Source: a virus. Taken from it: a stretch of DNA of 64,000 nt. The position numbers were made by a program, and so were the translations under genes. Below are positions 30,366 through 62,993 of the stretch, in pieces. How positions within the stretch are numbered: the first letter of the stretch is position 1; each line of letters begins with the position of its first letter. The stretch is taken from IMG/VR virus record IMGVR_UViG_3300006139_000001, one strand, 5' to 3'. The notes beneath the pieces are model-generated. The model had not been told where the DNA came from. It saw only the letters and a list, made by a program, of their open reading frames with translations, and did no database searches.

Positions 30366-30752
30366 TCAATCTTTATCAGTGATGCAAAAATTCTTTAAAT
30401 TATCTAGTATATGAAAACGAATAAGGCATAAAATCATTTGGTATATATCTCCTTCGCAACTATCCCATTCAAAATAAACTGAATTTTCTCTTACCATTTC
30501 AATTAGTTCATCAATTTTATCTTCAAAACATTCTGATGCCTCTGCTCCTGTATCGGTTGTTACCCAAGTGTCGTATGCCGTTTCTTCTCGCCTAATTCGT
30601 GGTTCTAACTCAGTTTTAATGCGGAACTCATAATGTTGTCTAGTGTCTTGCTCTTTTTTAAGTTTTATATTTAACTCTCGAATTATATCCCGTTGTTCAT
30701 CAATTTTGTATTTAAGTTGGCGTATGTATTCTTCATATTCTTTTTCGCTCAT
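30366..30752 (-). CDS. Hypothetical protein (coiled-coil N-terminus)
   Basis: 128-aa ORF. Confidence 0.3.
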   Translation of the reverse strand: MSEKEYEEYIRQLKYKIDEQRDIIRELNIKLKKEQDTRQHYEFRIKTELEPRIRREETAYDTWVTTDTGAEASECFEDKIDELIEMVRENSVYFEWDSCEGDIYQMILCLIRFHILDNLKNFCITDKD

Positions 30753-31546
30753 ATTTTACCTCGCAACACTGATAACAAATAGTTATCGAGATAGTTTTCT
30801 AGTATTTTGTCGGCAGATTTCAATATTTCATCATTGCTATTATCAAATAATTCTTCTGCTATTCCGCCACCTATTGCACATAGAGTATCTGTATCACATT
30901 TCAAACTAAAAACATTTCTTATAAATTCTGTGTAGCTATTTGCTTCATAAACACATCTAATTGCAACTGGCACACTCCCTTGGCATGTTTCATTCCAAAG
31001 ATAGTCGTGTTTGATTTCGTTAATGCTTAAAGCTGCACTATATGTATATTTGTCTTTTGGATAATGTGAAATAGTATACTGTAAAATATCATCTCGTGTA
31101 TATCCATTTTTCGCCATCCAAATACACATTGCTGTTATGATTGCACCTTTCAATCCTTCCGGATGGTTATGTGTGCATTCTGCGGATTTTTTAGCATACT
31201 CAATTACTTTATCTATTGTTTTAAAATGGTCTGCGACAAATGATACTCTCATAGCAGAGCCATTACCATAACTTTCATATGGTTTATCTTCTTGTTCATC
31301 AATCCATTCAGCAAAACGACTACCATAACCAACATCACGATATTTCAATCCAAAGAACTGATATGATTGTGCAAATGGAATATTATGTTCAATCGCATAT
31401 TTTGTAGCAATGCTCATTACTGTGTCATCTGTAAACTTGCATTTATCTGATAATAGTGCAGCGGTTTTGTCATTAAAACCTTCTGGTTTTTTGAATTCAT
31501 ATTGAGAACCAATAATGTCGCCAAGTATTGCTCCTTTAATTGCCAT
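30749..31546 (-). CDS. ADP-ribosylglycohydrolase (ARH/DraG family)
   Basis: N-terminal GAILGDIIGSQYEF and the family signature YGNGSAMRVS. 265 aa. Confidence 0.75.
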   Translation of the reverse strand: MAIKGAILGDIIGSQYEFKKPEGFNDKTAALLSDKCKFTDDTVMSIATKYAIEHNIPFAQSYQFFGLKYRDVGYGSRFAEWIDEQEDKPYESYGNGSAMRVSFVADHFKTIDKVIEYAKKSAECTHNHPEGLKGAIITAMCIWMAKNGYTRDDILQYTISHYPKDKYTYSAALSINEIKHDYLWNETCQGSVPVAIRCVYEANSYTEFIRNVFSLKCDTDTLCAIGGGIAEELFDNSNDEILKSADKILENYLDNYLLSVLRGKI

Positions 31547-32605: not shown

Positions 32606-33625
32606 TTAGTGCGCTGCCAAATCAGCTTCGTTCAGTTTCATGACTTCATCAAAGAATTCTTCTCCGACCTGAACCTTGACTCTACGCTCAATACTCTTAC
32701 TCTGTTTCCAAGAAGTAAACGGCATCATATGGTAATAAATTAAGTTTGCAATATGTAATCTATCTGTATAGGGAATGTGTAAGACATCCATATAGAAGAA
32801 GGAATCGTATGAGCCGCAATTCTGGTGGTTATAATAATGGCATTCAGTATCAACCTCACCACGAGAATTCAAATGTGACTTCGTAAACACTTTGCCAATA
32901 TCATGAAGAAGTGCAGCAGTTCTCAGCGCAAGGTTATTAGGAAAATGCTCCCTTACATATTCTGCTGCTTCAAGACAATGACCACCGATAGTTGACTTAT
33001 GATGACTATTCTCCTGGTCAATATCGTTTGCATTAATTTCACCATAAAAGAAGTTATCTAAAGTAAACTTGTTCTTATCAATATCACCATAATTGTAAGC
33101 CAGAACAATATTGTCGAATCCCTCATCCATAGCTGGAGGACTCCAACTCAGATACATCCTCTTAATCGCATCTTCCGGCACTTTGCGCTCTCTATTGCTA
33201 TTCTGCTGAAGGACAACTTCATAAGGAGTAAGAACACAAACGCAAACCTTGTGGCAATCAATATTCTTCAACTCCTGAAGGAATGCTTTGCGACGCTTCT
33301 TGTTAATATTAGTTGCGTCATATACAACATCTTTGCCGTTGCGCAAATCTTCTTTGATACGACGGTGAAGTTCATTAAACAAATCACCGTTATGCTCTTG
33401 GTTATTCTCATCACCATAAAGTTCAACTCTGAGCGCATCGGAAGAATGGATAATAGGTTTTACAAAATCGCCATCTCTCTTGGTTACAAGGGTTTCAGCA
33501 ACAAAAGACTTGCCACTACCGGCTAACCCTTCCATCATAAATAAAACGGGAATTTTATTTGCATTTTCGCACTCATAAACGCTCCTAATAGGAGGGTTTG
33601 CATTTTCAAAATTCTTGTCACTCAT
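32606..33625 (-). CDS. P-loop kinase fused to HD phosphohydrolase domain (polynucleotide kinase/phosphatase-like RNA end-healing enzyme candidate)
   Basis: Walker A MMEGLAGSGKSFVAE N-terminally. C-terminal HD motif AALLHDIGK with upstream His residues. 339 aa. Confidence 0.6.
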   Translation of the reverse strand: MSDKNFENANPPIRSVYECENANKIPVLFMMEGLAGSGKSFVAETLVTKRDGDFVKPIIHSSDALRVELYGDENNQEHNGDLFNELHRRIKEDLRNGKDVVYDATNINKKRRKAFLQELKNIDCHKVCVCVLTPYEVVLQQNSNRERKVPEDAIKRMYLSWSPPAMDEGFDNIVLAYNYGDIDKNKFTLDNFFYGEINANDIDQENSHHKSTIGGHCLEAAEYVREHFPNNLALRTAALLHDIGKVFTKSHLNSRGEVDTECHYYNHQNCGSYDSFFYMDVLHIPYTDRLHIANLIYYHMMPFTSWKQSKSIERRVKVQVGEEFFDEVMKLNEADLAAH

Positions 33626-33646
33626 CGTAAACGCCCCCTTTCTTGG

Positions 33647-33892
33647 TCATTTTTTTGTCAAATACATCGAAAATCCGTATTTGAGAGGCACAATTTTAAT
33701 ATATCGTGTTGTGTAGTGCCGAAGGATAGTACAAATCTCAAAAACATTTTCGTTATAGCCAATACCATATTGAATAACATCTTTTTCTTTATTCGCCGCA
33801 ATGTACTGAACTATTCGACCTGCTTTATACCATGATTTATTGTCAAACGACTTCTCGTTGATGGATAATTTCATACGCTTCTTTCCAATCAT
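33647..33892 (-). CDS. Hypothetical small protein
   Basis: 81-aa ORF. Confidence 0.25.
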   Translation of the reverse strand: MIGKKRMKLSINEKSFDNKSWYKAGRIVQYIAANKEKDVIQYGIGYNENVFEICTILRHYTTRYIKIVPLKYGFSMYLTKK

Positions 33893-34406
33893 TTACCCGA
33901 TATATTCCATTCGCACTTGCGTTATAACTTCTATTGTGTGGAGCTGTCATTAGAATTTTGATAAAGTTCCCATTTTCAAGATTGTGGATTCCATCATCAA
34001 TCAAATAATCGGCTTGAATCATTTGCTTATTACTTGCAACAATTACATGATTCCACTTGATATAAGGAAAATATCGCTTAACTATGTATTCGTACTTTGC
34101 ACGAACATTTCTGTAATCAGTAGATGTACAAAGGAAAATGTTATATCCTTCATTAAACAATTTCTCTACATATTCCATAGCATCAGGCTTTGGTTTGACT
34201 GTTTCCCAAAAACCGTCATGATGCAGAGGTTCAAAAACCTGCTCTCTTGTCAACGACGGATAGAACATACACATATCCCAACCTGTAATGTCATCAACAG
34301 AAACATTCATGTTGAATCTGCTATTTAGGCAATACACCCAAGCCTGTAGCAATTCTTCGATTGTGTCATCTATATCAATTAACAACACTGGCATTTCTTT
34401 ATTCAA
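33843..34406 (-). CDS. HAD-superfamily phosphatase (DxDxT)
   Basis: N-terminal VLLIDIDDTIEE, the HAD motif I, as in the T4 Pnk phosphatase domain. 187 aa. Confidence 0.5.
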   Translation of the reverse strand: MNKEMPVLLIDIDDTIEELLQAWVYCLNSRFNMNVSVDDITGWDMCMFYPSLTREQVFEPLHHDGFWETVKPKPDAMEYVEKLFNEGYNIFLCTSTDYRNVRAKYEYIVKRYFPYIKWNHVIVASNKQMIQADYLIDDGIHNLENGNFIKILMTAPHNRSYNASANGIYRVNDWKEAYEIIHQREVV

Positions 34407-34966
34407 TCAGTAACCTCATTTCCAAAACAATCCCAGCCAGGTCTTGTATTTCTTGCATACATCTCTAACTTCTTCAAATCTGGATAAAGTCGCTCAATAA
34501 TTTCATAGGCGATTTCTGGTTTTTTACTATGTTTCGTAACTTTTTCTCTGAAAACCGTATGTATTTTGCCACGTTCATCTTTAGCTACCGGAGTTAATTT
34601 ACCCTTGTACATATAAAGTAAATATTCATGTCCATATCTCACAGTGAACGCAGCGGGAATACCAGTTACCTTATCCCAAATCATTCTTGCGTGGAGTTTA
34701 TAACCAAGACTTTCGGCTATTTCTTGTGCTTCAAATAAGTATTTGTCTATTGTCCATAGAAATAGGATTGAGTTCTCCCCCGAAGCATTTGTTGCAAGCT
34801 GTAGATGCTCTTTGATTTCATCTAAGCTGCAAACAGGATAATCAAGAGGTTTGCCACTACTATTTTCACGAACAGATTTCTTTCCACCTTTACTTTGTTT
34901 CCAAGGTGGGTCAGCATAAATCAAATCATGCTGACCCTGGATATTATGCAAATCATTTACTACCAT
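34403..34966 (-). CDS. MT-A70-family N6-adenine methyltransferase
   Basis: DLIYADPPWKQSKGGKK, the DPPW catalytic motif. 187 aa. Confidence 0.65.
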   Translation of the reverse strand: MVVNDLHNIQGQHDLIYADPPWKQSKGGKKSVRENSSGKPLDYPVCSLDEIKEHLQLATNASGENSILFLWTIDKYLFEAQEIAESLGYKLHARMIWDKVTGIPAAFTVRYGHEYLLYMYKGKLTPVAKDERGKIHTVFREKVTKHSKKPEIAYEIIERLYPDLKKLEMYARNTRPGWDCFGNEVTD

Positions 34967-34977
34967 TGTTTTCGCCT

Positions 34978-35322
34978 TTAGCTTAAAAGTGCTTCAAAAT
35001 TGGCAATAATCTTTTCATTGCCAGTGCGCAATTCGCCAAGAGAACCATTGGTTGACTGAAGGCTTGCAATCTTCTCAACATTTCTTTCGCATTCTTCCGC
35101 AATCTCTGAATTGGCGGCTTTCAGTTCATCAATAGTGGTACGAATAATATTTACAGCATTAGCCGATTTCTGCTGTAATGTTTCTAATGCGGTTTGTGAT
35201 TTAGTAAGTCTCATTTTGTTATTCTCCTTGTTTTTGTTTATAGTAAAAGTAGTAGCAATAGCCACCACATTGAGTAGTTGATAGCCAAGTAAACAGCCAA
35301 TCCAACTACAAAAATGTACCAA
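34978..35322 (-). CDS. Hypothetical coiled-coil protein (start likely internal, at MRLTKSQ)
   Basis: ORF only. Confidence 0.25.
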   Translation of the reverse strand: MVHFCSWIGCLLGYQLLNVVAIATTFTINKNKENNKMRLTKSQTALETLQQKSANAVNIIRTTIDELKAANSEIAEECERNVEKIASLQSTNGSLGELRTGNEKIIANFEALLS

Positions 35323-35337
35323 ACATATTTCATATCA

Positions 35338-36648
35338 TCATTCTGCATCGTAAATCAGTTCCTCGGCTTCTTCAATGTCAGGAGCATCAGCAGTGTCCTT
35401 AATAATGCCCTCCAGCACCTTGAATGCAAAAGATTTCGTTTTATAAGCCGTAAACTTAGAACGATTGTCGATTCTCACAACTATGCCTTCAGTAACATGA
35501 CTACCATTGGCAAGCGGTTCGGGAATATCAAGATACTGTGCACATCTTTCGTTCAAATCTTCCCAAGTGGTATAAAGGAATTTTTCAAGAAGCGGAACAT
35601 ATTCGCAACCAAGACGGTCACACCATTTAATCGTTTCCTCGGTAGGAATTTCAATGGTAATGCCATCATCATTGGTCATTGTAATGCGATAGATATAGCA
35701 CCTATTTTCGCCAGGATTGCAACCATATGTAAAAATCGTTTCAGCACCATACTGTTTGGTGAACTCTTTATCCTTAACCTTAGAATTGCTACACTTAGGC
35801 ATAATCGGAGTGTTTTCATCAATCCAGCCGACAATTTCACCATACACGGTCATTCCCTTTGGAAGTTTATCAACAAAGAAGTCGTTGTACTTCTTACGGA
35901 ACGCATTAGAACCATAGTAACCACCGTCGTAATCTCTCAAAACAACACGGCGAGTACCACTGATAATCTGAAACTTAGAAGTAACCTTATCCGGCATATG
36001 GAATAACTTCTTCAAAATAGGATTGCGCTTGGTTGTAGTGAATTCCAGGCAGTTGCTTACACGGAAAGAAGTACCATGCAACTTGCGAGTAAGATAGATA
36101 ATATCGTTCTCTCTAAATGCTTGCTGGTTATATGCAAGCTGCTCCGTATCAATATGCTCTGTGAAGAAAGGATAAGAAATCTTCTGGTGTTCCTCTTTCT
36201 TATTCTTAGAAATTTTTACACCACCAGAATGAGTTCTTCGATTACCACGAGGAATATACTTTTTGCAAATCTCATGACCATCAAGAACCGTAATCTGGTC
36301 GCCATCTTTCAGGCTTTCAACATCGGTATACTTCGCCAAAACAGCGACGGGAAGTACCAAACCATCAGATTTCTCACCACGGAGTTTTAATGCTCGAATA
36401 TTTCTCTTGTCGGGTTCAAGATAACCACCGACATTATTACCATTTTCATCTTTCCTGCGAACCAAGTTATTGTCATTTGCAAATTCTTCACTAAGCTGAC
36501 CATCCACAGGAAAATAAATAACTCTATCCCCCGCAGCGTAGCTCATATCGACAATAACGTTGTTCCCGAAAATCTCACAACACTGTAGCCTGTCGGCGTT
36601 AGAATGCTTATGGATTTCTTTAATTGTCGTAATATAAGCACAATACAT
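35338..36648 (-). CDS. ATP-dependent RNA ligase (Rnl2-like nucleotidyltransferase)
   Basis: Motif I LTRKLHGTSFR (KxHGxx, lysine adenylation site as in T4 Rnl2). Motif IV TEGIVVRIDN. Motif V KTKSFAFK. 436 aa. Confidence 0.6.
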   Translation of the reverse strand: MYCAYITTIKEIHKHSNADRLQCCEIFGNNVIVDMSYAAGDRVIYFPVDGQLSEEFANDNNLVRRKDENGNNVGGYLEPDKRNIRALKLRGEKSDGLVLPVAVLAKYTDVESLKDGDQITVLDGHEICKKYIPRGNRRTHSGGVKISKNKKEEHQKISYPFFTEHIDTEQLAYNQQAFRENDIIYLTRKLHGTSFRVSNCLEFTTTKRNPILKKLFHMPDKVTSKFQIISGTRRVVLRDYDGGYYGSNAFRKKYNDFFVDKLPKGMTVYGEIVGWIDENTPIMPKCSNSKVKDKEFTKQYGAETIFTYGCNPGENRCYIYRITMTNDDGITIEIPTEETIKWCDRLGCEYVPLLEKFLYTTWEDLNERCAQYLDIPEPLANGSHVTEGIVVRIDNRSKFTAYKTKSFAFKVLEGIIKDTADAPDIEEAEELIYDAE

Positions 36649-36660
36649 TAATCTTTCTCC

Positions 36661-36888
36661 TTACTTTTTCTTTTTCTTTGCTGTGCACTTTAGTTGGTGC
36701 TTTCTATCAGAAGTATTAGAATTAATATCTGTCTTTTTCTGATTTACTTCTTTATCCTTAAAAATAAGAGGTATCTTTTTGGACTCATACCAGCAACGTG
36801 GACATCGGTGAAATTCGTATGCTTTACTATCGTAAAAGCTCATTACACGTTTCATGACCTGGTTGCATTTCCTACAGAACATAATCAC
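36661..36888 (-). CDS. Small zinc-ribbon protein
   Basis: CRKC...CPRC. Lys-rich tail. 75 aa. Confidence 0.3.
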   Translation of the reverse strand: MIMFCRKCNQVMKRVMSFYDSKAYEFHRCPRCWYESKKIPLIFKDKEVNQKKTDINSNTSDRKHQLKCTAKKKKK

Positions 36889-36914
36889 AATACTCCTTTC
36901 TTGACTTCATATAC

Positions 36915-36964
36915 ATTATAGCACATTCCGTTCTGTTTGTCAATACTTTTTCTGATTTAATTTA
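36915..36964 (-). promoter_or_regulatory. Consensus promoter TTGACA-17-TATAAT plus conserved upstream element
   Basis: rc(36938-36943)=TTGACA, rc(36915-36920)=TATAAT. Motif at 36945-36964. Confidence 0.55.
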
Positions 36965-38168
36965 TGATTTTTTGTGAATACTCTAATAGTGTATCATGTT
37001 CGTTTGTTAGGCGTTCTTCGATAACAGCAGATAGCAAAGCATTTAACACAACACCAATTTCCTTACCGGAATAACCAACAGCTTTTATGTCCTTTCCATC
37101 TACCTTTAGATGTGATATTTTATAACATTCATTCCTGCACTTTGGCAAACATTCTCCCATACTATCGGCAAATACATAATAGGTTGTAGTGCTATCAAGA
37201 TATGAAGTGCATCTTAGTGCAGAAACAACATCATCTGCTATAGTATCATTATAATTAAGTACACGCCTTATTACAATCTGCGGAACAAGTTCATCGTCGC
37301 TGTAAGCACGAATATTATATGTCCACTTACGAATACCGCAAACATTCTTGATAGTTTTGTTATCAAACTTCAAGCGCTGCAATATCTCTTTTTGCTTATC
37401 TTCATCAAAATTGAACAACAAGGCAATTCTAACATTTGTGGATGTATCAAAAATACCTATCATTGTCATTGCGCTATTAACCATTCTATCTGTAAGTTCT
37501 GGAACAACAACTTGTAGAATTTTACCCATAACAACAGAATAACCATGCGATAGCGCTTTTGTTATTTCTGAATTGATACGCTCTACTGAAATGTTTTTTA
37601 GAAGATTCTTGTTTTCATAAATTGACCGTAATGTTTTTGATTCAATATCATATCCAAGAGTAATTGAAAATCTGATTGCTCTGAGGATTCTAAGTGCGTC
37701 CTCACTAAATCTATCATCTGGTTTTCCAACACATTTAATTACTTTATTCTTTATATCACTTTTACCACCAAAGAAATCAATCAAACCAATAGAAGGATTA
37801 TATGCCATTGCATTGATTGTAAAATCTCTGCGTCTCAAATCCTCTTTTAAGCTATTTGTAAATGTTACTTCTACTGGATGCCTATTATCTTCGTATTCAC
37901 CATCTATTCGATAAGTTGTTACCTCGTACTGTTCATCATCCATAACAATAGTAACCGTTCCATGTTTTAATCCAGTTGGAATGATTTTGTTGTCACTAAA
38001 AACTTCTACAATTTGCTTCGGCAAGGCAGAAGTGCAAATATCCCAATCATGCGGCACTAAGCCTATGATGCTATCACGGACGCATCCGCCAACAACATAG
38101 GCTTCATAACCACATTTATTGAGCTTATTCAAAATGTACTTTGCGTTGTTAGGTAATCTTAATTCCAC
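36957..38168 (-). CDS. tRNA nucleotidyltransferase (class II CCA-adding enzyme / poly(A) polymerase head domain)
   Basis: YVVGGCVRDSIIGLVPHDWDICT (GGxVRD...DxD). 403 aa. Confidence 0.75.
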   Translation of the reverse strand: MELRLPNNAKYILNKLNKCGYEAYVVGGCVRDSIIGLVPHDWDICTSALPKQIVEVFSDNKIIPTGLKHGTVTIVMDDEQYEVTTYRIDGEYEDNRHPVEVTFTNSLKEDLRRRDFTINAMAYNPSIGLIDFFGGKSDIKNKVIKCVGKPDDRFSEDALRILRAIRFSITLGYDIESKTLRSIYENKNLLKNISVERINSEITKALSHGYSVVMGKILQVVVPELTDRMVNSAMTMIGIFDTSTNVRIALLFNFDEDKQKEILQRLKFDNKTIKNVCGIRKWTYNIRAYSDDELVPQIVIRRVLNYNDTIADDVVSALRCTSYLDSTTTYYVFADSMGECLPKCRNECYKISHLKVDGKDIKAVGYSGKEIGVVLNALLSAVIEERLTNEHDTLLEYSQKIIN

Positions 38169-39112
38169 GGATTATTCACTTCCTCCAAGAATTTGGCAAG
38201 TTTACCATCATGATAGAACACCAAATCATTCTCAGTAATAGGTTTACCAAAGTAATGCTTAACAATCTGGTGGAAGATTTCGGCATTCAGACACTTAAAT
38301 TCAACATCGTTAGAGTCGCTGTTATGAATCTTCATATATCCATCAGTGCCTTCAATCTTGTACAATTCAAACATTTCAACCCTTACAAGCTGACCGATAC
38401 CAAGAGGGCAACTATTTACAGACGTTTTCAACTCGGAAAGAGAAAATCCACAGCCTGCTCCATATTCACGAGGGACACTAATAATAATCTCATCTTCACC
38501 TAGACTGAAAACAGAAACACCAGAAATTGTATCCATAATATGCTTGCACAAAATATTCATAAGGTAATGTTCATATCTAATCTGCTTTTTGGGGTTGCAA
38601 GCGCCAAGAATAACCTGGCGAATATATTTGCTATGTATAATATGCTGGTTATCGGTAAACTTAGCCATAAACTGTTCCCAAGTATCTGCTCCATCAAAAA
38701 TCTTGGTAGAGTAATGCTTCATCGCAGAGAAGTTCGCTTTTTTCATATCAATAGATATAAACGCACTACCGTCGTTGTCCTCTACATATACATTCCTCTT
38801 AGAAACAACATACTCAGTTGGGTGGTTATCATTAATAAAAGCGTTGTATTCATCCTTTGCCTTAATAAAGTCAATAATAGAGTCTTTAACTTTATTGTAA
38901 TATTCAAAATAATCCTGCTCATTTGCAAATCGCTGCAATTCAGCACAAAACACATCGAACTTATCTACACAATCGAACAGGATGTCGATGGTTTGCAAAC
39001 GCTCATAAAAATATGGATTATCAAAGACAACAATAGGCAAATTGCTATCTTTGCAGAAACGCTTTTTCAGCGCAATGGAATTCATTACTTCTTCTCTGGT
39101 CATATGTAGCAT
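38159..39112 (-). CDS. Hypothetical protein
   Basis: 317-aa ORF overlapping the CCA-enzyme start by 10 nt (same operon). Confidence 0.3.
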   Translation of the reverse strand: MLHMTREEVMNSIALKKRFCKDSNLPIVVFDNPYFYERLQTIDILFDCVDKFDVFCAELQRFANEQDYFEYYNKVKDSIIDFIKAKDEYNAFINDNHPTEYVVSKRNVYVEDNDGSAFISIDMKKANFSAMKHYSTKIFDGADTWEQFMAKFTDNQHIIHSKYIRQVILGACNPKKQIRYEHYLMNILCKHIMDTISGVSVFSLGEDEIIISVPREYGAGCGFSLSELKTSVNSCPLGIGQLVRVEMFELYKIEGTDGYMKIHNSDSNDVEFKCLNAEIFHQIVKHYFGKPITENDLVFYHDGKLAKFLEEVNNPWN

Positions 39113-39118
39113 CCTCCT

Positions 39119-40171
39119 TTAACCTAAACAAACCTTTTCATTCACACTTGCAACAAAGTCGTTCACCTTATTCATATCAACTCGCTCCGGCAGAATTGTG
39201 TTCTCTTTGTCGTAGTCAAGGCGTTTCTCTAAACCATCAACCATTTCATAGAACTCTGCTGTTGGCTGTCTATTTTCATCAAGATACTCACCATTGCGAA
39301 TTGCCATTAGTAAATCATGTTCTGTCTCTCGATAAGTATTGATTTCGCCTTTTTCAAGAATGTCAAAACACATAAAGTACAATCTTACTAGGTGCATCAT
39401 GTGTTTGCCTAGCTTATCATGCGCAATAGCTTTTTCATTTCTCTTGCCGATTTTACCATAAGCCTTGACAATGGCGTGCATCTCAGACCACATATCCTTA
39501 AAGTCACGCAATGGATAATGTGTAAGGTTTACATCCATAAAGATTTCAGAATCGTAATCCTCTCTGAAGGACTTATCAATAAACAACTTGATTGCATCTT
39601 CTGGATGTTCAAAATACTTCGCCTTATAATCAACGGATGCGTGTTCAATACTTTTTAAGATATTTGCTTCTTGCTGGCTTTGTGAAACGAGACGAGCTGC
39701 TTTATTTTCTAAACGACGCAACTGTGCATTAGCATATCCACCGAATGAATGTACAGCAGCCTGAGACAAAAATAGGCTCTTATTTGCCAATAACTGCTCC
39801 CCCGCATACGAAAGATACAAATAGTGTTCCGACTTTAACCCAAGAATCTCGATTGTGTTTGGATTACATGAGCATAGCAACTTTATAATCTTATCAAACG
39901 AATATACGGTTGTATCTGTTTCCACTTCAACAACCTGCTCAAAATCTTTCCCAATAAAAATGTTACGGCGTGAATTTGTTGCTACACCACGAACATCAAG
40001 GTCAGAATTTTCATTACTTGTACCATAGGCATGACTACCACCAAGACCAAGCAAAATGATATTGCCACCAAGATTTTCGTTATATCTCAAAAAATCGTAC
40101 TCTGTAGATTGTAGCTTTCTCTTTATTTCAGTTAGATTCATTTTCATCCTCCTCGATTGTATACTTGACAT
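39119..40171 (-). CDS. Pol-beta-superfamily nucleotidyltransferase (GS...DxD), first gene of the RNA-repair operon
   Basis: LLGLGGSHAYGTSNENSDLDVRGV nucleotidyltransferase core followed by a ~230-aa helical region. 350 aa. Specific family (CD-NTase, ANT, tRNA-end NTase) not resolvable by eye. Confidence 0.55.
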   Translation of the reverse strand: MSSIQSRRMKMNLTEIKRKLQSTEYDFLRYNENLGGNIILLGLGGSHAYGTSNENSDLDVRGVATNSRRNIFIGKDFEQVVEVETDTTVYSFDKIIKLLCSCNPNTIEILGLKSEHYLYLSYAGEQLLANKSLFLSQAAVHSFGGYANAQLRRLENKAARLVSQSQQEANILKSIEHASVDYKAKYFEHPEDAIKLFIDKSFREDYDSEIFMDVNLTHYPLRDFKDMWSEMHAIVKAYGKIGKRNEKAIAHDKLGKHMMHLVRLYFMCFDILEKGEINTYRETEHDLLMAIRNGEYLDENRQPTAEFYEMVDGLEKRLDYDKENTILPERVDMNKVNDFVASVNEKVCLG

Positions 40172-40260
40172 TTTAGAAAATCCGATGTATAATATGCGTA
40201 TATCGGGTCACATTTTCTAAACCGTACTCTAAGTATAGCAGATAATTTTCTAATTGTCAA
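40165..40260. promoter_or_regulatory. Divergent promoter/operator switch region: plus-strand TTGACA(40165-40170)-17-TATAAT(40188-40193); minus-strand TTGACA(rc 40255-40260)-17-TATACT; three copies of the 9-bp operator-like word TTAGAAAAT
   Basis: Word at 40173-40181 (plus orientation), 40212-40220 and 40245-40253 (reverse orientation). They flank or overlap the -10/-35 boxes between the Xre repressor gene and the minus-strand operon. GGAGG RBS before ATG 40171. Confidence 0.6.
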
Positions 40261-40303
40261 GAGGAAATTTAGAATATTTGACCGCACTTTAGGAGGAAAC
40301 ATT

Positions 40304-40663
40304 ATGGAATCCATTTTATATCAGAGAATAAAAGCATTATGTGAAAGAAAAGGAATAAGCATTGCAAAATTAGAATCAGAATTAGGATTTGGTAACGCTT
40401 CTATCAAAAAATGGGGTCGTGTCAGCTCTCCATCTGTAGATAAGATAATAAAAGTCGCTGGTTATTTTGACGTTTCGGTAGATTACTTACTTGGTAGGAC
40501 AGATATAGAGGGTTCTATATCTGAGGTAATTGGCGACGAAGATATTATTTCATTCCAAAGAGCAAGACAGAAAATGACTCAAAAGGATAAAGAGCGTATG
40601 ATGCAAATGCTTAAACTTGGCTTTGAGTATGCTTTCTCTGACCAGGAGGGCGATGGTAAATAA
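40304..40663 (+). CDS. XRE-family helix-turn-helix transcriptional regulator (phage repressor-like)
   Basis: HTH LCERKGISIAKLESELGFGNASIKKWG. 119 aa. Confidence 0.75.
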   Translation: MESILYQRIKALCERKGISIAKLESELGFGNASIKKWGRVSSPSVDKIIKVAGYFDVSVDYLLGRTDIEGSISEVIGDEDIISFQRARQKMTQKDKERMMQMLKLGFEYAFSDQEGDGK

Positions 40664-41272
40664 ATGGTGCGATATGTCTATATAAATAATTTGGTGCTTG
40701 ACATTTATGAAATGCTACCAAAGATTCAGTTTCCTCTCGATATTAAAAGTGTTATCAATTATTTCCCTAACTGTAGATATATGTCTTATCAAGATTTTGC
40801 AAAGATTAATAGATGCTCAATCGAAGATGTTATTCAAATTTGCGAAAGCAAATCTGGTTGCACACATTACGACATAATGCAAAATAGATACTTAATTCTT
40901 TGCAATCAGTCAACACAGGACAACAATAACATTGGTAGGCAACGTTGGACTTGTGGGCATGAAATTGGTCATGTGGCTTGTAATCATCATGCTATATCTG
41001 CTTATGAGAAACTTTCAGAAAACAGCCTATTGCAGATTGACAATGCCGAATATGAAATGGAAGCCGATTATTTTGCTGCCACCATATTAGCACCATTTCC
41101 ATTATTTAAGTTGTTTGATGTTAAGTCTGCTATTGACATTCAAAACATATTTGGTCTTTCTACGGAAGCATCTTTGTATAGGTATAAACAATATTTAAAA
41201 TGGCTCAAAACAAGAGTTAAAACTTCCTGGGAAAATGATATGATAAGACTTTATAAGCAGAAGAATATTTAA
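40664..41272 (+). CDS. ImmA/IrrE-family metallopeptidase (anti-repressor protease)
   Basis: HEXXH zinc motif CGHEIGHVACNHH. Immediately downstream of the Xre gene. Confidence 0.7.
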   Translation: MVRYVYINNLVLDIYEMLPKIQFPLDIKSVINYFPNCRYMSYQDFAKINRCSIEDVIQICESKSGCTHYDIMQNRYLILCNQSTQDNNNIGRQRWTCGHEIGHVACNHHAISAYEKLSENSLLQIDNAEYEMEADYFAATILAPFPLFKLFDVKSAIDIQNIFGLSTEASLYRYKQYLKWLKTRVKTSWENDMIRLYKQKNI

Positions 41273-41323: not shown

Positions 41324-41755
41324 ATGAATGAACAAGAATACAAGCATATTCGCAATTTAGCGTGGGATTTACTGATTGATGCAAACATCTCACAGTTGCC
41401 GGTTGATATAAATGCTATTGCGGCTTTATATGATTTGCAGCATTTAGTTGATAATCGTAAGTCCCTATATGACAATACTCTTTTTGTTGCCGAAGGTATC
41501 TTGAAAATTTTTGGATTGACAAACCATAAATTCACAAGATACCTCACAGTCAGAATTCTTGCTCCAATGATTGTTTTCAAAGAGTTAGGTGTCAATTCTG
41601 CGGAAGAAATGAGCAATCTTTCTGGACTTCCAATAGACTTGGCAAAGCAACGTTTTGAGCGCTTTGAAATGCTCTTAGTACGGAATGCTTTTGAAACCTC
41701 ACGCCTTGAAACCATTGTATTATCACAATTCCGTGAATGGTTGAATAATCGTTAA
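41324..41755 (+). CDS. Hypothetical protein
   Basis: 143-aa ORF with a strong RBS-like ggggtga upstream. Confidence 0.3.
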   Translation: MNEQEYKHIRNLAWDLLIDANISQLPVDINAIAALYDLQHLVDNRKSLYDNTLFVAEGILKIFGLTNHKFTRYLTVRILAPMIVFKELGVNSAEEMSNLSGLPIDLAKQRFERFEMLLVRNAFETSRLETIVLSQFREWLNNR

Positions 41756-42485: not shown

Positions 42486-43541
42486 TTACTCTCCATTATT
42501 ATTTGTATCAATACCAAACATTATAGAACTGCTATCACCAGACACATACTGCGGAAGCTGACCATTCCACTTTTTAATCCACATTTCCTGTAAAATCTGT
42601 TCAGTAATAGATTTTTCAAGTAGCTCATTAGCCTCTGCTTCTGCCTCTGCTGCAATGACCTTTGCTTCTGCTTCGGCTTCTGCATTGGTCTTTTTAACAG
42701 TAGCGTCTGCCTCTGCTTTTTCGATTGCTCTTTGGTTTTCAATAGCTTGCTGTTCGGCTTCAAGTTGTGCTTGCTGCTTTGCCGCAATAGCCTGGTTATA
42801 CGAATCTTCAAAATCGGCGTTGCTGATAATCACCTTGTTAATATATACAACATTCTCACCATACTTCTCATCGAGAGATTTTTGAAGATTCTCCATAGCA
42901 ATAGGTTCAATAATAGAACGGTTAGTTGCATCTGTATCAGATAGGCTCTTGCTACTTGCCTTTATAGCAGATGCTACAATGCTCTGATTAATAAGTGCAT
43001 CTTTATAATTAGCTACGTTTGCATAAATCCAAGCAGACTTCTCAGGATTAATTTGATATGTGATAATAACTCCATCATAGTAAATAGCGGTTCGCTTAGA
43101 AGTCTCAGACCAAATTTGCCCATCAAATGTAATATCCTGCTGTTTATTATTCACCTTTTCAATAGATTGTATATAAGGTAACTTCCAGTTGAAACCATTT
43201 TGAACAGTAACAGAATCAATCTGTCCAAATGTAGTGCGTACACCAGTGTAACCAGTTGGAATAATTACGATTGCGCAAGAGAATGTAAATAGTACGATAG
43301 CTACCAAAACGCCAACAATAGTGTACTTAGTTTTTACCTTGGTATATGTACCATCGCCATGATACGAATTTCTAACCTTTCTTGCTCGTGCAGAGTTAAT
43401 CATAACTGGAATTACAATAGCTACGACAAAAATTAAGATAGCCACAATTTTCAAAAATACTGTCATTTTTGTTTTAATCTCCTTATCTTGATGATTGAAT
43501 ATCATCTGAATATTTAGTTTTTGAAGTATATATATTATCAA
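42486..43541 (-). CDS. SPFH/band-7 (prohibitin/HflK-like) membrane protein
   Basis: N-terminal TM segments, SPFH core, and a long Ala/Glu/Gln-rich coiled coil (AKQQAQLEAEQQAIENQRAIEKAEADA...). Confidence 0.65.
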   Translation of the reverse strand: MIIYILQKLNIQMIFNHQDKEIKTKMTVFLKIVAILIFVVAIVIPVMINSARARKVRNSYHGDGTYTKVKTKYTIVGVLVAIVLFTFSCAIVIIPTGYTGVRTTFGQIDSVTVQNGFNWKLPYIQSIEKVNNKQQDITFDGQIWSETSKRTAIYYDGVIITYQINPEKSAWIYANVANYKDALINQSIVASAIKASSKSLSDTDATNRSIIEPIAMENLQKSLDEKYGENVVYINKVIISNADFEDSYNQAIAAKQQAQLEAEQQAIENQRAIEKAEADATVKKTNAEAEAEAKVIAAEAEAEANELLEKSITEQILQEMWIKKWNGQLPQYVSGDSSSIMFGIDTNNNGE

Positions 43542-44694
43542 AATACTGCCTTAAATCATTTATTGTACAATTACCAGCAATATCATTGGTATAATTGAGA
43601 TGAGAAACCAAAAGAGAAATTGTTGCATCTTGGATAACACTCTTTGATAAACCAATATCTTTTTGTACTCTGCCCAAGAATTCATCAAGGTCGAATTTTC
43701 CATATCTGATAGATTCTTGAAAATCGTTATGCACATTCGTTTTATCTTCAATGCAAGGATTTATTTCTTCTTTTTGGCACTCAGTAGGAAACGCACCCGC
43801 TCCATGTCTTGTAAAATAAGACCTCGTTATGTAACAGATTTCAACATCAAAACCATATGGCTTAATTCGATTTATGGGGATAAATGAAGTTGTTTTGCTT
43901 GCTGTAATATATGGAAGTGCTTTTTTGTTATCCTCGTCAAGTTCAAGTCCCTGCGCACCCTCAAAAACAATGATGTCATACATAGAGATAAGTTTATCAA
44001 ATGAAATCTGAATAACCTCTCTCTGCATTTGTCTAAGGTCTGACAAATAATGTTTAGCTAAACCATAAGAATTAATAAGTTTTTGATATTCTTCTGGTAT
44101 CTCTGTTATACCATAGCTGGCAAGTCGTTCTGGGAGATACTTATAAGCAATATCATGCAAATAACGAATGATTTCGTAATCTGTTTTGTGCTGTAATTCG
44201 CCGTATTTTAATGAATACCTTCCATCTTCGTATCGCTTTTGTGTTTCCCAAATACCATATCCACAAGAGCCATGCCTATTGTTTGCCCTTGATGTTTCAA
44301 CAATTTGGTTGATAAACATATCGTATGGTGTTGTTACTCTGCATTCCGGCGAAATATAACACTTTGGGAATTCATATCCAAATTCTTTCATTATGGTGCA
44401 GAGTGTTTCTTTTTCTTCAACAAACACCATAGGGTTCACCATAAAGTCTTGGTCAAAGTAAGTATGAGCATTATCAAATGAGCCAGAACCGAAGTGATGG
44501 AAAATGTGTCGAATGCCATTTTTCAATTCTACTGTATGACCTCTTTGACATCCACCATTAAAGAGAATATTTAAACAGAATTTGTTATCTTGATTTGCTT
44601 TTTGTGAAAAGTAGTGAGTTGCAAGACCTTTGCCTTCATCTCCATAATTGCTACCTACTACTACTTTGACCTCAACTTTACTCATATCTATCAC
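43483..44694 (-). CDS. Adenylosuccinate-synthetase-family protein (PurA homolog; candidate PurZ)
   Basis: N-terminal VVVGSNYGDEGKGLATHYF (GDEGKGK P-loop of PurA) and NGGCQRGHTV (PurA QGGHNAGHT region). 403 aa, shorter than bacterial PurA (~430). Confidence 0.7.
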   Translation of the reverse strand: MIDMSKVEVKVVVGSNYGDEGKGLATHYFSQKANQDNKFCLNILFNGGCQRGHTVELKNGIRHIFHHFGSGSFDNAHTYFDQDFMVNPMVFVEEKETLCTIMKEFGYEFPKCYISPECRVTTPYDMFINQIVETSRANNRHGSCGYGIWETQKRYEDGRYSLKYGELQHKTDYEIIRYLHDIAYKYLPERLASYGITEIPEEYQKLINSYGLAKHYLSDLRQMQREVIQISFDKLISMYDIIVFEGAQGLELDEDNKKALPYITASKTTSFIPINRIKPYGFDVEICYITRSYFTRHGAGAFPTECQKEEINPCIEDKTNVHNDFQESIRYGKFDLDEFLGRVQKDIGLSKSVIQDATISLLVSHLNYTNDIAGNCTINDLRQYFDNIYTSKTKYSDDIQSSR

Positions 44695-45548: not shown

Positions 45549-46153
45549 TATTCATCCTCCGTTTCCTTATCACCATCGTCATCATCGGTGTCAAAATCGA
45601 ACATACCGTCAAACATATCGGCAAATCCGTTGCTACCCATCATCATAAAGGGAAGCATAGCACCCATTCCGCCAGATGTATTTCCAGAAGTCATACCGTT
45701 TCCGGTAGCACCCTTCATCATCTCTGACATGAGCATATAAGACATCATCTTATTCATGCCTTTCTTGCCCTTCATAATGTCAGAACCGAACATAGAAACA
45801 ATCTTGCCATAAAAATAGGTGTTACCCATAAACACATGACGCTCTGGCAAAATATTCTCAACCGTAGAATCCTCATAGTTGATAACCTTAATTGTGTCCT
45901 TATCATTAGAAACAACACACTTCGGCTTTCCAGAAACGATGATGATGTCACCAGGTTCAACCTTGTTGGTAGGAATAACAAAGAAGAATTCCTCTCCAAC
46001 GTTGAAAACAAAGTTATTGCAATTCGTCAGTCGGTTAGTTTTAAGATTATAAGTCTTATAACCACCATTGGTTTTAACTGCGATGCCCCCGTTCATGGAG
46101 AGTCTGCACATCCCATTGGCAACCTTGCCAAACATTCCATTAAACATATCCAT
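45548..46153 (-). CDS. Hypothetical protein with Gly/Met-rich region and acidic tail
   Basis: 201-aa ORF. C-terminus DTDDDDGDKETEDE. Confidence 0.3.
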   Translation of the reverse strand: MDMFNGMFGKVANGMCRLSMNGGIAVKTNGGYKTYNLKTNRLTNCNNFVFNVGEEFFFVIPTNKVEPGDIIIVSGKPKCVVSNDKDTIKVINYEDSTVENILPERHVFMGNTYFYGKIVSMFGSDIMKGKKGMNKMMSYMLMSEMMKGATGNGMTSGNTSGGMGAMLPFMMMGSNGFADMFDGMFDFDTDDDDGDKETEDE

Positions 46154-61964: not shown

Positions 61965-62039
61965 TGGTAAGCTGTATGGGAGTCGAACCCATGCTTCTGC
62001 CGTGAAAGGGCAGCGTCTTAACCACTTGACTAACGGCTC
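61965..62039 (-). tRNA. tRNA-Glu (anticodon UUC), CCA encoded
   Basis: rc reads GAGCCGT-TA-GTC..GAC-G-CTGCC-CTTTCAC-GGCAG-AAGC-ATGGG-TTCGACT-CCCAT-ACAGCTT-A-CCA. One C:A mismatch in the acceptor stem. Confidence 0.6.
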
Positions 62040-62042
62040 ATA

Positions 62043-62119
62043 TGGCAGGAGAGGAAGGACTTGAACCCTCATCTACATCTGTTTTGGAGACAGGCGTTTT
62101 ACCATTAAACTACTCTCCT
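62043..62119 (-). tRNA. tRNA-Trp (anticodon CCA), CCA encoded
   Basis: Acceptor AGGAGAG/CTCTCCT. Anticodon loop CTCCAAA. T-arm GAGGG-TTCAAGT-CCTTC. Confidence 0.55.
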
Positions 62120-62122
62120 TTA

Positions 62123-62198
62123 TGGTCTGAGTGGCGGGACTCGAACCCGCAGCCTCGTGAACCCAAATCACGCCGTCTACCAGTTGACGTACACCCAG
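62123..62198 (-). tRNA. tRNA-Pro (anticodon UGG), CCA encoded
   Basis: Acceptor CTGGGTG/CACTCAG. Anticodon stem-loop CGTGA-TTTGGGT-TCACG. T-arm GCGGG-TTCGAGT-CCCGC. Confidence 0.65.
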
Positions 62199-62282
62199 AT
62201 ATAAATTCCTGTGACCAGCAGGAATCATATTTTTTATATCACGGACTCACATCTAAACAGTATTGATTGCCGTAAAGGTCTT

Positions 62283-62359
62283 TGGAGCGGATAAAGGGAC
62301 TTGAACCCTCACCACCTGCTTGGAAGGCAGGTATGCTAACCATTAAACACTATATCCGC
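62283..62359 (-). tRNA. tRNA-Gly (anticodon UCC), CCA encoded
   Basis: Acceptor GCGGATA/TATCCGC. Anticodon stem-loop CCTGC-CTTCCAA-GCAGG. T-arm GAGGG-TTCAAGT-CCCTT. Confidence 0.7.
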
Positions 62360-62363
62360 ATAA

Positions 62364-62450
62364 TGGTGCGGGAGAAGGGATTTGAACCCTCACGGTGGTT
62401 ACACCAGCGGATTTTAAGTCCGCTGCGTCTGCCGATTCCGCCACTCCCGC
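62364..62450 (-). tRNA. tRNA-Leu (anticodon UAA), long variable arm, CCA encoded
   Basis: Acceptor GCGGGAG/CTCCCGC. Anticodon stem-loop GCGGA-CTTAAAA-TCCGC. Variable arm GGTGTAACCACC. T-arm GAGGG-TTCAAAT-CCCTT. Confidence 0.7.
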
Positions 62451-62663
62451 ATAAGTCACAAGTGGATTAAAAATCGTCATCGTTAATCATTCAAATCCGT
62501 CGATTTGACACTTGTGAGAATATCCAACTTGGCTCTACATCACTATGGCAAATTGGTTGCCAAATGGTTTACTAACTCCATCAAAAGGTGCTGACAATTT
62601 GGACATGTAGCAGCCATACATGATTTGAATTTATGCTAAGTAGAGAGGTCACATAAATTCTAA

Positions 62664-62756
62664 TGGCGACAGCGGTAGGATTTGAACCCACGGGCGGCTC
62701 ATCACCGCCGCCTGATTTCAAGTCAGGTGCAATAAACCAAGCTCTGCCACGCTGCC
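62664..62756 (-). tRNA. tRNA-Ser (anticodon UGA), long variable arm, CCA encoded
   Basis: Acceptor GGCAGCG/CGCTGTC. Anticodon stem-loop CCTGA-CTTGAAA-TCAGG. Variable arm CGGCGGTGATGAGCCGCCCG. T-arm GTGGG-TTCAAAT-CCTAC. Confidence 0.65.
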
Positions 62757-62759
62757 ATA

Positions 62760-62834
62760 TGGTACTCCGTAATGGAATCGAACCAATATCTATCGCTTAT
62801 AAGGCGATTGCTCTAACCTCTGAGCTAACGGAGC
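62760..62834 (-). tRNA. tRNA-Ile (anticodon UAU, reads AUA), CCA encoded
   Basis: Acceptor GCTCCGT/ACGGAGT. Anticodon stem-loop ATCGC-CTTATAA-GCGAT. T-arm TTGG-TTCGATT-CCAT. Confidence 0.55.
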
Positions 62835-62837
62835 ATA

Positions 62838-62913
62838 TGGTGGAACTAATGGGAATTGAACCCATGACCTCCTGCTTGCAAGGCAGGTGCTCTCCCATCT
62901 GAGCTATAGCCCC
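62838..62913 (-). tRNA. tRNA-Ala (anticodon UGC) with G3:U70 identity pair, CCA encoded
   Basis: Acceptor GGGGCTA/TAGTTCC. Anticodon stem-loop CCTGC-CTTGCAA-GCAGG. T-arm ATGGG-TTCAATT-CCCAT. Confidence 0.7.
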
Positions 62914-62916
62914 ATA

Positions 62917-62993
62917 TGGTGCGTCAGGAGGGACTCGAACCCACGACCTACAGATTAGAAGTCCGTTGCTCTATCCAACTGAGCTACTGGCGC
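62917..62993 (-). tRNA. tRNA-Arg (anticodon UCU), CCA encoded
   Basis: Acceptor GCGCCAG/CTGACGC (one C:A mismatch). Anticodon stem-loop ACGGA-CTTCTAA-TCTGT. T-arm GTGGG-TTCGAGT-CCCTC. Confidence 0.6.

Follow-up and report, generated by a model that had tools for sequence, protein, structure and literature searches.

Phage sets of RNA ligase, polynucleotide kinase, phosphoesterase, the nucleotidyltransferase RlaP, CCA-adding enzyme, and tRNAs have been read, in a survey of jumbo phages, as countermeasures to defenses that cleave tRNA, and Thg1 is named there among the phage repair nucleotidyltransferases (PMC7824862). The Pseudomonas RlaP adds one or two nucleoside monophosphates, without a template, onto an RNA 3'-OH and prefers a mimic of a cleaved tRNA; its authors point out that untemplated addition should yield mostly wrong products (PMC12776372). 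Phage RNA repair is a recognized form of counter-defense, for which T4 has been the main object of study and jumbo phages the subject of a survey. Here, we describe a block of genes at positions 32,606 to 40,260 of the 64,000-nucleotide stretch of IMG/VR virus record IMGVR_UViG_3300006139_000001 (the whole of which is called the window below). Judged from its sequence, the block probably encodes a phage RNA repair system, with tRNA as its most probable substrate, placed behind a repressor-controlled promoter. One of its genes, passed over in the initial annotation as an "unknown," encodes a 317-amino-acid (317-aa) protein that is a conserved, polymerase-palm-like partner of RlaP.

The initial annotation had described a single operon encoding a Pol-beta-type nucleotidyltransferase, the 317-aa protein, a CCA-adding enzyme, an Rnl2-like RNA ligase, an MT-A70 methylase, a HAD phosphatase, and a P-loop kinase-HD fusion, and had read it as the inventory of T4-type tRNA repair assembled from partly unusual domains. 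When each open reading frame (ORF) was annotated with hidden Markov models (HMMs), all of the listed ORFs proved to exist and every domain assignment held, with the exception of the ligase family. A set of proteins for healing ends, restoring nucleotides, and sealing is indeed present on the evidence of HMM matches, PDB sequence matches, and synteny, whereas the MT-A70 and HAD proteins are probably not repair components. Most of the domains are of known kinds rather than unusual ones, RlaP being a named family and the kinase-HD protein a permuted form of the Runella HD-Pnk.

The Pol-beta-type protein is assigned to RlaP (RNA-ligase-associated Pol-beta nucleotidyltransferase) on the basis of a score well above the family cut-off and the catalytic motif GGSH...DLD (GGSHAYGTSNENSDLD, residues 44 to 59). 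Its true start is likely at 40147 or 40141, directly after GAGGAGG, if this is taken as the ribosome-binding site. The class II CCA-adding enzyme passes the cut-off of a curated model, carries GGCVRD, DWD, RRD, and EDALR at residues 27, 41, 113, and 156, and matches 6ibp (E 8e-63) and 1miv (E 1e-53) in the PDB. Between these two genes lies that of the 317-aa protein, 6 nt after RlaP and with its stop overlapped by 10 nt by the start of the CCA gene.

This arrangement is widely kept. We compared all module proteins by tblastn with about 130 loci (22 from viromes, 30 from genomes, and 80 from metagenomes), and their gene orders indicate two conserved sub-modules: A, comprising RlaP, the 317-aa protein, and the CCA enzyme, and B, comprising a zinc-ribbon (Zn-ribbon) protein, the ligase, and the kinase-HD protein (Pnk-HD). 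In 82 of 101 distinct loci, the 317-aa gene has RlaP as its immediate upstream neighbor, and in 64 of 104 it is immediately followed by the CCA gene. In a branch with 33% identity (L150), the triad is reordered as 317-aa, RlaP, and a CCA enzyme with HD domain, beside an Acb2/Tad1 anti-defense gene. A further clade, at 40 to 50% identity, has a CCA enzyme that bears its own HD domain, with a DHH/DHHA1 phosphoesterase next in 17 of 47 loci and sometimes an SPFH/Band-7 or calcineurin-like phosphoesterase gene near the cassette; a ligase next to the cassette went undetected in most loci of this clade. Such a composition points to work on 3' ends rather than to the sealing of nicks. The association of RlaP with an RNA ligase is evident in the window, where the ligase gene lies 2.5 kb downstream on the same strand, and in L019, where it directly follows the RlaP/317-aa pair. 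As untemplated addition by RlaP should be mostly wrong, the tight coupling of the two genes makes the 317-aa protein a candidate for the missing specificity, and it could tentatively be proposed that RlaP, the 317-aa protein, and the CCA enzyme form a triad that rebuilds 3' ends.

Its description as an unknown was apt, since the 317-aa protein matches no family in Pfam, PHROGs, NCBIfam, or PADLOC. Comparison of its profile with PDB sequences returned nothing, and when 62 family members were run against Pfam at E values up to 10, the outcome was only two weak matches to the Y-family domain IMS and none to DNA_pol_B. Alignment of the family profile by hhalign with T4 gp43 gave a probability of 0.4%, and the same comparison with a 406-aa protein of the window that PHROGs labels "polymerase" was negative. 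In view of this lack of detectable sequence similarity, we place the protein in no polymerase family. Its own family is large: at 90% identity it forms more than 1400 clusters and at 50% at least 1852, almost all of them unnamed proteins of 300 to 330 aa. Members are found in Clostridia and their phages, with remote ones in giant viruses, in Asgard archaeal metagenome-assembled genomes (MAGs), and in a eukaryote. The neighborhoods of remote homologs (Salicola phage SCTP-2, MT835533, LR756502, an Asgard MAG, and others) were mostly uninformative. One remote member lies among genes for a class II aminoacyl-tRNA synthetase, an HD_4 protein (RelA/SpoT-type hydrolase), and a release factor at 653-8820 of L148, a 110-kb contig (JGI 3300045300) that looks like a very large phage or virus.

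The predicted fold is more telling. An AlphaFold model built on a 36-sequence alignment (pLDDT 91, pTM 0.86) has a polymerase palm with fingers-like helices, the palm-plus-fingers arrangement of B-family polymerases. In the model, a beta-strand ending at D122 is followed by a helix, by a helical insert with S161-K162-Y163-x-R165, and by a beta-hairpin with D207-E208 at its turn, and this beta-alpha-(helical insert)-beta-hairpin topology is common to right-hand polymerases such as RB69 gp43, Pol II, and Pol alpha, as well as to the inactive herpes simplex virus (HSV) protein UL8. Across the 62-sequence alignment, which reaches down to 23% identity, S161, K162, D207, E208, and D296 are invariant, and S120, D122, N127, Y163, R165, G170, P174, and K273 are at least 90% conserved. 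In the model, acidic residues occupy positions like those of motif A and motif C in palm polymerases. When the model was compared with predicted viral structures (BFVD), the best match was a full-length Klosneuvirus "R3H domain protein" (TM 0.84, E 2e-18), and a Medusavirus homolog joins the same fold to a 3'-5' exonuclease of the DEDDy type. The 50 BFVD matches listed contain neither NrdC.10 nor any other T4 protein, although whether T4 is represented in BFVD was not checked.

Likeness to the B family does not extend to membership. The 317-aa protein has one third of the size of B-family polymerases, lacks their motifs (DxxSLYPS, KxxxNSxYG, and YGDTDS) and their exonuclease, N-terminal, and thumb domains, and occurs in a context of RNA repair, not replication; by eye, its strings SIDMKKANF, SKYIRQVILG, and GEDE resemble the B-family motifs. 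A conceptual parallel is offered by the Thg1-like proteins, which perform templated 3'-5' repair of 5'-truncated tRNAs: they, too, are small and built on a palm domain, with a D...DE metal-binding arrangement, and they restore missing nucleotides at tRNA ends, as the 317-aa protein might do. It is conceivable, if speculative, that the 317-aa protein is the founding member of a hitherto unrecognized family of miniature right-hand polymerases and that, with RlaP and the CCA enzyme, it makes up a pathway of three transferases for rebuilding tRNA 3' ends, or nucleotides of the anticodon loop, that toxins of the host or of competitors have destroyed. Such a pathway, if true, would be the 3'-end counterpart of Thg1-like 5'-end repair and would give the specificity that RlaP alone lacks. 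The searchable literature, a scope that leaves the survey of Burroughs and Aravind 2016 outside, yielded no description of a 317-aa RlaP partner, and the cultured RlaP phages PVP-SE1 and BCP78 have no 317-aa-like neighbor.

As to whether this partner is an enzyme, we lean slightly toward catalysis. HSV UL8, an inactivated polymerase homolog, is among the best Foldseek matches of the model in the PDB and in fact heads them, and together with the silence of hhalign and Pfam on polymerase motifs this means that the protein could be non-catalytic. It might then be a polymerase-derived scaffold or RNA-binding subunit that recruits RlaP, the CCA enzyme, or the ligase, as UL8 serves in the herpesvirus helicase-primase. 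The small size of 317 aa, with no recognizable thumb or exonuclease domain, would suit such a subunit, as would the tight translational coupling to RlaP and one natural fusion of the two (metagenomic P0258, 839 aa). Set against this are D122, D207, and E208, which stand where palm polymerases hold their metal ligands and which, like K162, R165, K273, and D296, are invariant or nearly so in the 62 sequences, a degree of conservation typical of an active site. The exonuclease fused to the giant-virus homolog is, moreover, the classic proofreading partner of a polymerase. A scaffold role is possible, yet we think it less likely.

Sub-module B contributes the healing and sealing functions. The initial annotation had called the ligase Rnl2-like on account of its KLHGT, EGIVVR, and KTK motifs. 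These motifs (KLHG with K189, EGIVVR, and KTK) and the identity as a ligase stand, but the family does not, as an N-terminal OB domain (residues 5-101) precedes the nucleotidyltransferase (NTase) domain (184-411). Rnl2, which we considered and rule out, has the NTase domain N-terminal and a helical domain C-terminal, and no Rnl2 structure was returned when PDB sequences were searched with the ligase. The layout is instead that of the Rnl5 ligases, with a match to the N-terminal domain of Naegleria NgrRnl (E 4e-5) and one to TIGR02306, the model of Deinococcus DraRnl (E 9e-14), in which the N-terminal half alone aligns. As the latter score of 51 bits falls below the cut-off of 151, the protein is better seen as a divergent Rnl5 relative than as an ortholog. 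It shares the order of OB and NTase domains with DraRnl and NgrRnl and differs in being very divergent, in being about 100 aa longer, and in being preceded by the conserved Zn-ribbon protein, whose gene stands directly before that of the ligase in many relatives and precedes it wherever tblastn finds a ligase of this type.

The kinase-HD fusion of the initial annotation is likewise confirmed, and its kinase did not turn out to be an unrelated NTPase. Motifs GLAGSGKS, SSD, DATN, and H..HD are present, with the kinase at residues 28-162 and the HD domain at about 205-339. The kinase aligns with that of Clostridium thermocellum Pnkp (4gp7, E 9e-12) over a region that takes in the catalytic SSD and DATN segments, and it also matches TIGR04075 (Pnkp). 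The HD domain belongs to PF01966 and corresponds to the HD region of actinobacterial CCA enzymes (TIGR02692 positions 235-380). In E. coli Cca, the HD domain acts both as a 2',3'-cyclic phosphodiesterase and as a phosphatase. As the match to phrog_6931 falls into two segments, and the kinase comes last in that profile, the protein is a domain-permuted HD-Pnk; more than 100 full-length metagenome homologs have the identical architecture. We also considered a DatZ-like dATPase of the Z-genome pathway as the identity of the HD domain and rejected it, given the match to CCA-enzyme HD domains, the fusion to a Pnkp-type kinase, and the co-occurrence with the ligase. In the Runella slithyformis HD-Pnk/LIG cluster, a bifunctional HD and P-loop kinase protein, a 2',3'-phosphoesterase and 5'-kinase, is encoded beside an ATP-dependent ligase, as summarized in PMC6097658, which cites Munir and Shuman 2017. 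HD and Pnk share one polypeptide here as well, and its gene directly follows that of the ligase in relatives L001, L019, L027, and L028. The domain order is the opposite of that in Runella, with the kinase N-terminal and the HD domain C-terminal, and there are no Tpt1 or MTase-HIT partners.

Between the ligase and Pnk-HD genes of the window lie those for the MT-A70-fold adenine methyltransferase and the HAD protein, both of which carry the domains that the initial annotation had given them. The former matches the PADLOC model for type II DNA methyltransferases (E 1e-33) and PHROG families of DNA methyltransferases, and by this similarity it is most likely a DNA methylase. The latter is a full-length match to the NT5C family of 5'(3')-deoxyribonucleotidases. 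Among relatives, the two genes may lie downstream of the ligase gene, in the interval that separates it from the CCA gene, or kilobases off among variable genes. These family matches and shifting positions indicate that neither is likely to be a part of RNA repair, and they are probably passengers, with functions in anti-restriction and nucleotide metabolism, respectively.

This bears on the reading given in the initial annotation, in which nine genes of one operon all encode enzymes acting on RNA ends, the MT-A70 protein being an RNA m6A methylase and the HAD protein a 3'-phosphatase, in a T4 Pnkp/Rnl1 analogue tied to adjacent tRNAs. The genes are indeed co-directional and closely packed, the methylase and nucleotidase genes stay within a few kilobases of the module in most relatives, and the DxDxT of the HAD protein is the chemistry of T4 Pnkp. 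The family matches just given nevertheless speak for DNA and deoxyribonucleotides as substrates, the kinase already has a phosphoesterase, of the HD type, as its fusion partner, and the RlaP/317-aa/CCA and ligase/Pnk-HD units remain whole in relatives while the other two genes move. Neither the single operon nor the adjacent tRNAs withstood scrutiny: a perfect promoter of the sigma-A type (retained, along with the sequence on either side, in L035-L037 and L087) stands between the CCA gene and those for the Zn-ribbon protein and the ligase, co-directional genes continue beyond 32606, and the tRNA array lies 21.7 kb from 40260. We therefore regard this version as improbable.

The array encodes nine tRNAs, all with an encoded 3' CCA, as had been claimed, and eight of them have U34, the ninth being tRNA-Trp with anticodon CCA rather than a further U34-type tRNA. 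The UAU anticodon of tRNA-Ile is unusual. ARAGORN and Rfam found nothing in two gaps of the packed array (84 nt at 62199-62282 and 213 nt at 62451-62663), even at E values up to 1. It might be argued from the presence of nine phage tRNAs that the block serves the routine maturation and turnover of these tRNAs and of phage transcripts, the more so as CCA enzymes also maintain CCA ends in normal turnover. With CCA encoded in all nine, however, the enzyme is unneeded for their maturation, which suggests that it serves repair, and Firmicute hosts possess a CCA enzyme of their own. Furthermore, ordinary tRNA maturation in bacteria makes no use of a set of kinase, phosphoesterase, and ligase, the triad is found beside the Acb2/Tad1 gene in L150, and the module comes immediately after the switch described below. 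Housekeeping is, on these grounds, an unlikely function.

The promoter/operator region that the initial annotation had placed at 40165-40260 is well supported. The gap between the RlaP and XRE genes measures 132 bp and holds two face-to-face consensus promoters, and four operator half-sites resembling TTTAGAAAAT lie at 40172-40181, 40212-40221, 40245-40253, and 40268-40277, so placed that each promoter spacer contains one. The positions and architecture of the promoters and all four half-sites recur in 14 related loci, the repressors of which are 47-95% identical, and the half-sites co-vary with the XRE protein, all four becoming, for example, TCGAGAAAAT in L016 and L038. This joint change of half-sites and repressor is good comparative evidence for operators. 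The XRE gene, which is syntenic in most relatives, is followed by a gene for an ImmA/IrrE-type protease, presumed to act as anti-repressor, and by a 143-aa ORF. Overlapping tblastn matches of this ORF and ImmA in L019, L037, and L041 suggest that it is a second, truncated ImmA-like gene of the switch cassette.

Taken together with the promoters and an integrase gene, the XRE/ImmA pair looks like the lysis-lysogeny (immunity) switch of the phage, of the ImmR/ImmA type. As in the ImmR/ImmA switches of Firmicute phages and integrative and conjugative elements (ICEs), an HTH_3 repressor is followed by an M78 protein with an HEXXH protease motif, and repeated half-sites lie over opposing promoters; the promoters are here face-to-face (overlapping and convergent), whereas they are back-to-back in the known switches. 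Seven perfect TTGACA-N17-TATAAT promoters occur in the window, six of them on the minus strand, against 0.16 expected by chance, and a series of early and middle phage units appears to depend on consensus promoters for the host's sigma-A. Minus-strand genes run on past 32606 to about 6.8 kb, and the integrase gene (4892-6502) is co-oriented. From this layout, the repair genes would form the head of an early leftward transcript that comprises at least two transcription units.

When these observations of domains, motifs, predicted fold, synteny, promoters, and operator covariation are placed into a physiological context, a course of events can be proposed, in which the substrates, the order of steps, any catalysis by the 317-aa protein, and the role in counter-defense are inferred. 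In a lysogen, the XRE repressor would silence the block by occupying the four half-sites over both promoters; ImmA-type proteolysis would then free it, so that repair enzymes would be among the first proteins made, a timing that fits counter-defense against host nucleases targeting tRNA. Sub-module A, transcribed from the promoter at 40260-40232, would rebuild damaged RNA 3' ends: RlaP could add one or two untemplated nucleotides to a 3'-OH and the CCA enzyme restore the CCA tail, while the 317-aa protein might work with RlaP as a third nucleotidyl-transferase-like component. Our preferred guess is that it performs a structure- or template-guided fill-in or acts as the subunit conferring specificity on RlaP. 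Sub-module B, from the promoter at 36943-36915, would repair endonucleolytic breaks by healing and sealing, with the HD domain removing a 2',3'-cyclic or 3'-phosphate, the kinase phosphorylating the 5'-OH, and the ligase joining the 3'-OH to the 5'-PO4.

Several observations, besides the match to UL8, weigh against parts of this proposal. The XRE/ImmA pair probably governs the entire early region, so that repressor control is probably not specific to repair. The ligase and Pnk-HD genes are separated by 1.7 kb in the window, with the methylase and nucleotidase genes between them. About one-fifth of the 317-aa family has neither an RlaP nor a CCA gene nearby, among them chromosomal copies in Lachnospiraceae and distant members in phages, archaea, and giant viruses. 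In the closest relatives found (L035 7881-10781 and L036 2157-5060, contigs of rabbit-gut Clostridia MAGs with 88% identity), only short remnants of RlaP and CCA genes are left, and the 317-aa, Zn-ribbon, and ligase genes are intact; the 317-aa protein can hence persist without RlaP. The P0258 fusion, for its part, could be an artefact of assembly or of a frameshift.

A last point of this kind is that the Runella HD-Pnk heals DNA as well as RNA ends, according to the account given in PMC6097658. It could be argued that the ligase and Pnk-HD, and possibly the whole block, serve phage DNA metabolism, for instance in healing and sealing the nicks or the RNA-primed ends of a genome with possible base modifications. 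Replication genes (DnaB, DNA polymerase, and NrdD) follow the block, and a PurZ-like gene, DNA methylases, and the nucleotidase are near. We find this quite unlikely, as RlaP took solely RNA among E. coli macromolecules (PMC12776372). The CCA enzyme exceeds a curated CCA tRNA nucleotidyltransferase cut-off, the kinase is closest to bacterial Pnkp and tRNA kinases, and a separate NAD-dependent DNA ligase is encoded in the window. Rnl5 ligases, moreover, are said, from work of the Shuman laboratory on DraRnl and NgrRnl, to require a strand with an RNA 3'-OH.

Table 1. Positions of the repair genes, the switch, and other features in the window
Feature	Position	Strand	Remarks
Pnk-HD, P-loop 5'-OH polynucleotide-kinase-like protein with C-terminal HD phosphoesterase of CCA-enzyme type	32606..33625	-	
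NT5C-family HAD 5'(3')-deoxyribonucleotidase	33843..34406	-	PF06941, E 9e-30, full-length; DIDDT
MT-A70-fold adenine methyltransferase	34403..34966	-	PF05063; DPPW
ATP-dependent RNA ligase, Rnl5 architecture	35338..36648	-	PF21189 and PF09414; phrog_968, E 1.5e-69
75-aa CxxC...CxxC Zn-ribbon protein	36661..36888	-	Directly upstream of ligase
Internal perfect sigma-A-type promoter before Zn-ribbon and ligase genes	36915..36943	-	TTGACA-17-TATAAT
Class II CCA-adding enzyme	36957..38168	-	NF009814, 298.6 bits (cut-off 290)
317-aa polymerase-palm-like protein, unannotated family	38159..39112	-	Probable start M4 (39103)
RlaP, RNA-ligase-associated Pol-beta nucleotidyltransferase	39119..40171	-	PF10127, 58.1 bits (cut-off 23); phrog_388, E 1e-52
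Rightward promoter for XRE/ImmA genes	40165..40193	+	TTGACA-17-TATAAT, 12/12 matches
Four operator half-sites	40172..40283		Inverted and direct repeats
Leftward promoter for RlaP and downstream genes	40232..40260	-	TTGACA-17-TATACT, TG-extended -10, 11/12 matches
XRE-family HTH repressor, ImmR-like	40304..40663	+	PF01381 (HTH_3), E 1e-6
ImmA/IrrE-type metalloprotease, Peptidase_M78	40664..41272	+	PF06114, E 7e-9; HEIGH motif
143-aa ORF after ImmA gene	41324-41755	+	Weak ImmA similarity
DGR-type reverse transcriptase, then tail-fibre-like gene	2232-4195	+	phrog_1423, E 6e-64
Large serine recombinase/integrase	4892-6502	-	phrog_95, E 1e-99
406-aa PARP-like protein	13782-15002	-	Labeled "polymerase" by PHROGs
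ADP-ribosylglycohydrolase	30749..31546	-	PF03747, E 1e-26
SPFH/Band-7 membrane protein	42486-43541	-	2.3 kb upstream of repair module
PurA/PurZ-like adenylosuccinate-synthetase homolog and two conserved unknowns	43483-46153	-	phrog_2971, then 201-aa ORF
NAD-dependent DNA ligase	54743-56743		
Nine-tRNA array	61965..62993	-	Glu, Trp, Pro, Gly, Leu, Ser, Ile-UAU, Ala, Arg
Seven perfect promoters	13740-13768, 25574-25602, 36915-36943, 40165-40193, 46507-46535, 47189-47217, 54319-54347		

The window as a whole (35% GC) is phage-like, with nearly all of its genes on the minus strand, and encodes NrdD, a DNA polymerase, DnaB, and several DNA methylases (Table 1). The serine integrase supports a temperate lifestyle. 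A megablast search of INPHARED found no near-identical phage and no close relative. Gut and rumen viromes contain related contigs of 80-170 kb, and others belong to Clostridia genomes and MAGs, for example, of Ruminococcus, Lachnospiraceae, and Acetatifactor; Ruminococcus sp. YE282 and Lachnospiraceae bacterium A4 harbor related elements. On account of these sources, the element is a temperate phage of gut Clostridia, probably with Ruminococcus or Lachnospiraceae as its host.

Some of the neighboring genes may have a bearing on the module. The ADP-ribosylglycohydrolase gene is found directly between the XRE/ImmA switch and RlaP in most relatives, a position that suggests that it may belong to the repair or counter-defense module, where it may, for example, remove ADP-ribose from RNA ends or proteins. 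The same genome encodes the 406-aa protein mentioned above, residues 101-349 of which match the catalytic and helical regulatory domains of human PARP1 and PARP2 (E about 1e-11) and which, by this match, is a phage PARP-like ADP-ribosyltransferase. An SPFH gene is located upstream of the RlaP/317-aa cassette not only in the window but also in 7 metagenome loci, a position that fits the scaffold role proposed for SPFH proteins in RNA repair systems. The Rfam scan yielded the nine tRNAs alone, and hence neither a Y-RNA nor a cofactor resembling tRNA in the vicinity of the SPFH gene. The PurZ-like gene (phrog_1211 "PurZ," E 2e-53, with a weak match to the NCBIfam PurZ model) keeps its synteny with the phrog_2971 gene and the 201-aa ORF in relatives, a set that hints at 2-aminoadenine (Z) DNA. 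The reverse transcriptase and tail-fibre-like genes probably represent a diversity-generating retroelement (DGR) aimed at a receptor-binding protein.

The locus presents an elaborate version of RNA repair in temperate phages of gut Clostridia, wired to the immunity switch. The repair operon alone would be of moderate interest, to which the unannotated polymerase-like family adds, since the 317-aa protein is a testable candidate for solving the fidelity problem that emerged from the first RlaP biochemistry. If this partner is enzymatic, it would be among the smallest polymerase-like catalysts and would represent a new RNA repair activity in phages, bacteria, and giant viruses; if it is inert, the module would add one more ordinary case to the known RlaP repair systems.

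In conclusion, comparison with the described systems identifies this one as RlaP-type RNA repair in a broad sense. With the RlaP systems of phages (PMC7824862) and the Pseudomonas RtcB-RlaP-RtcA system (PMC12776372), it has in common RlaP together with RNA ligase, kinase, phosphoesterase, CCA enzyme, and phage tRNAs, as well as the nearby SPFH/Band-7 gene and the proposed role of restoring nucleotides lost from cleaved tRNAs before ligation. It differs from them in the palm-like protein coupled to RlaP, in a 5'-PO4/3'-OH ligase of the Rnl5 type in place of RtcB, Rnl1, or Rnl2, and in its occurrence in phages of gut Clostridia of about 100-170 kb rather than in jumbo phages. The same logic underlies T4 Pnkp and Rnl1, the phage-encoded, early counter to PrrC, in which a 5'-kinase with its P-loop, a 3'-end phosphoesterase, and an ATP-dependent RNA ligase are combined; here, the domain fused to the kinase is HD and not HAD (DxDxT), the ligase is Rnl5-like and not Rnl1, and three nucleotide-adding or polymerase-like proteins are added, such that the system belongs neither to the T4 Pnkp/Rnl1 nor to the Rnl2 group. 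What sets it apart from the described versions is the Rnl5-type ligase with its Zn-ribbon protein, the permuted Pnk-HD, the position at the head of an early transcript in a temperate Clostridia phage, and, above all, the palm-like partner of RlaP.

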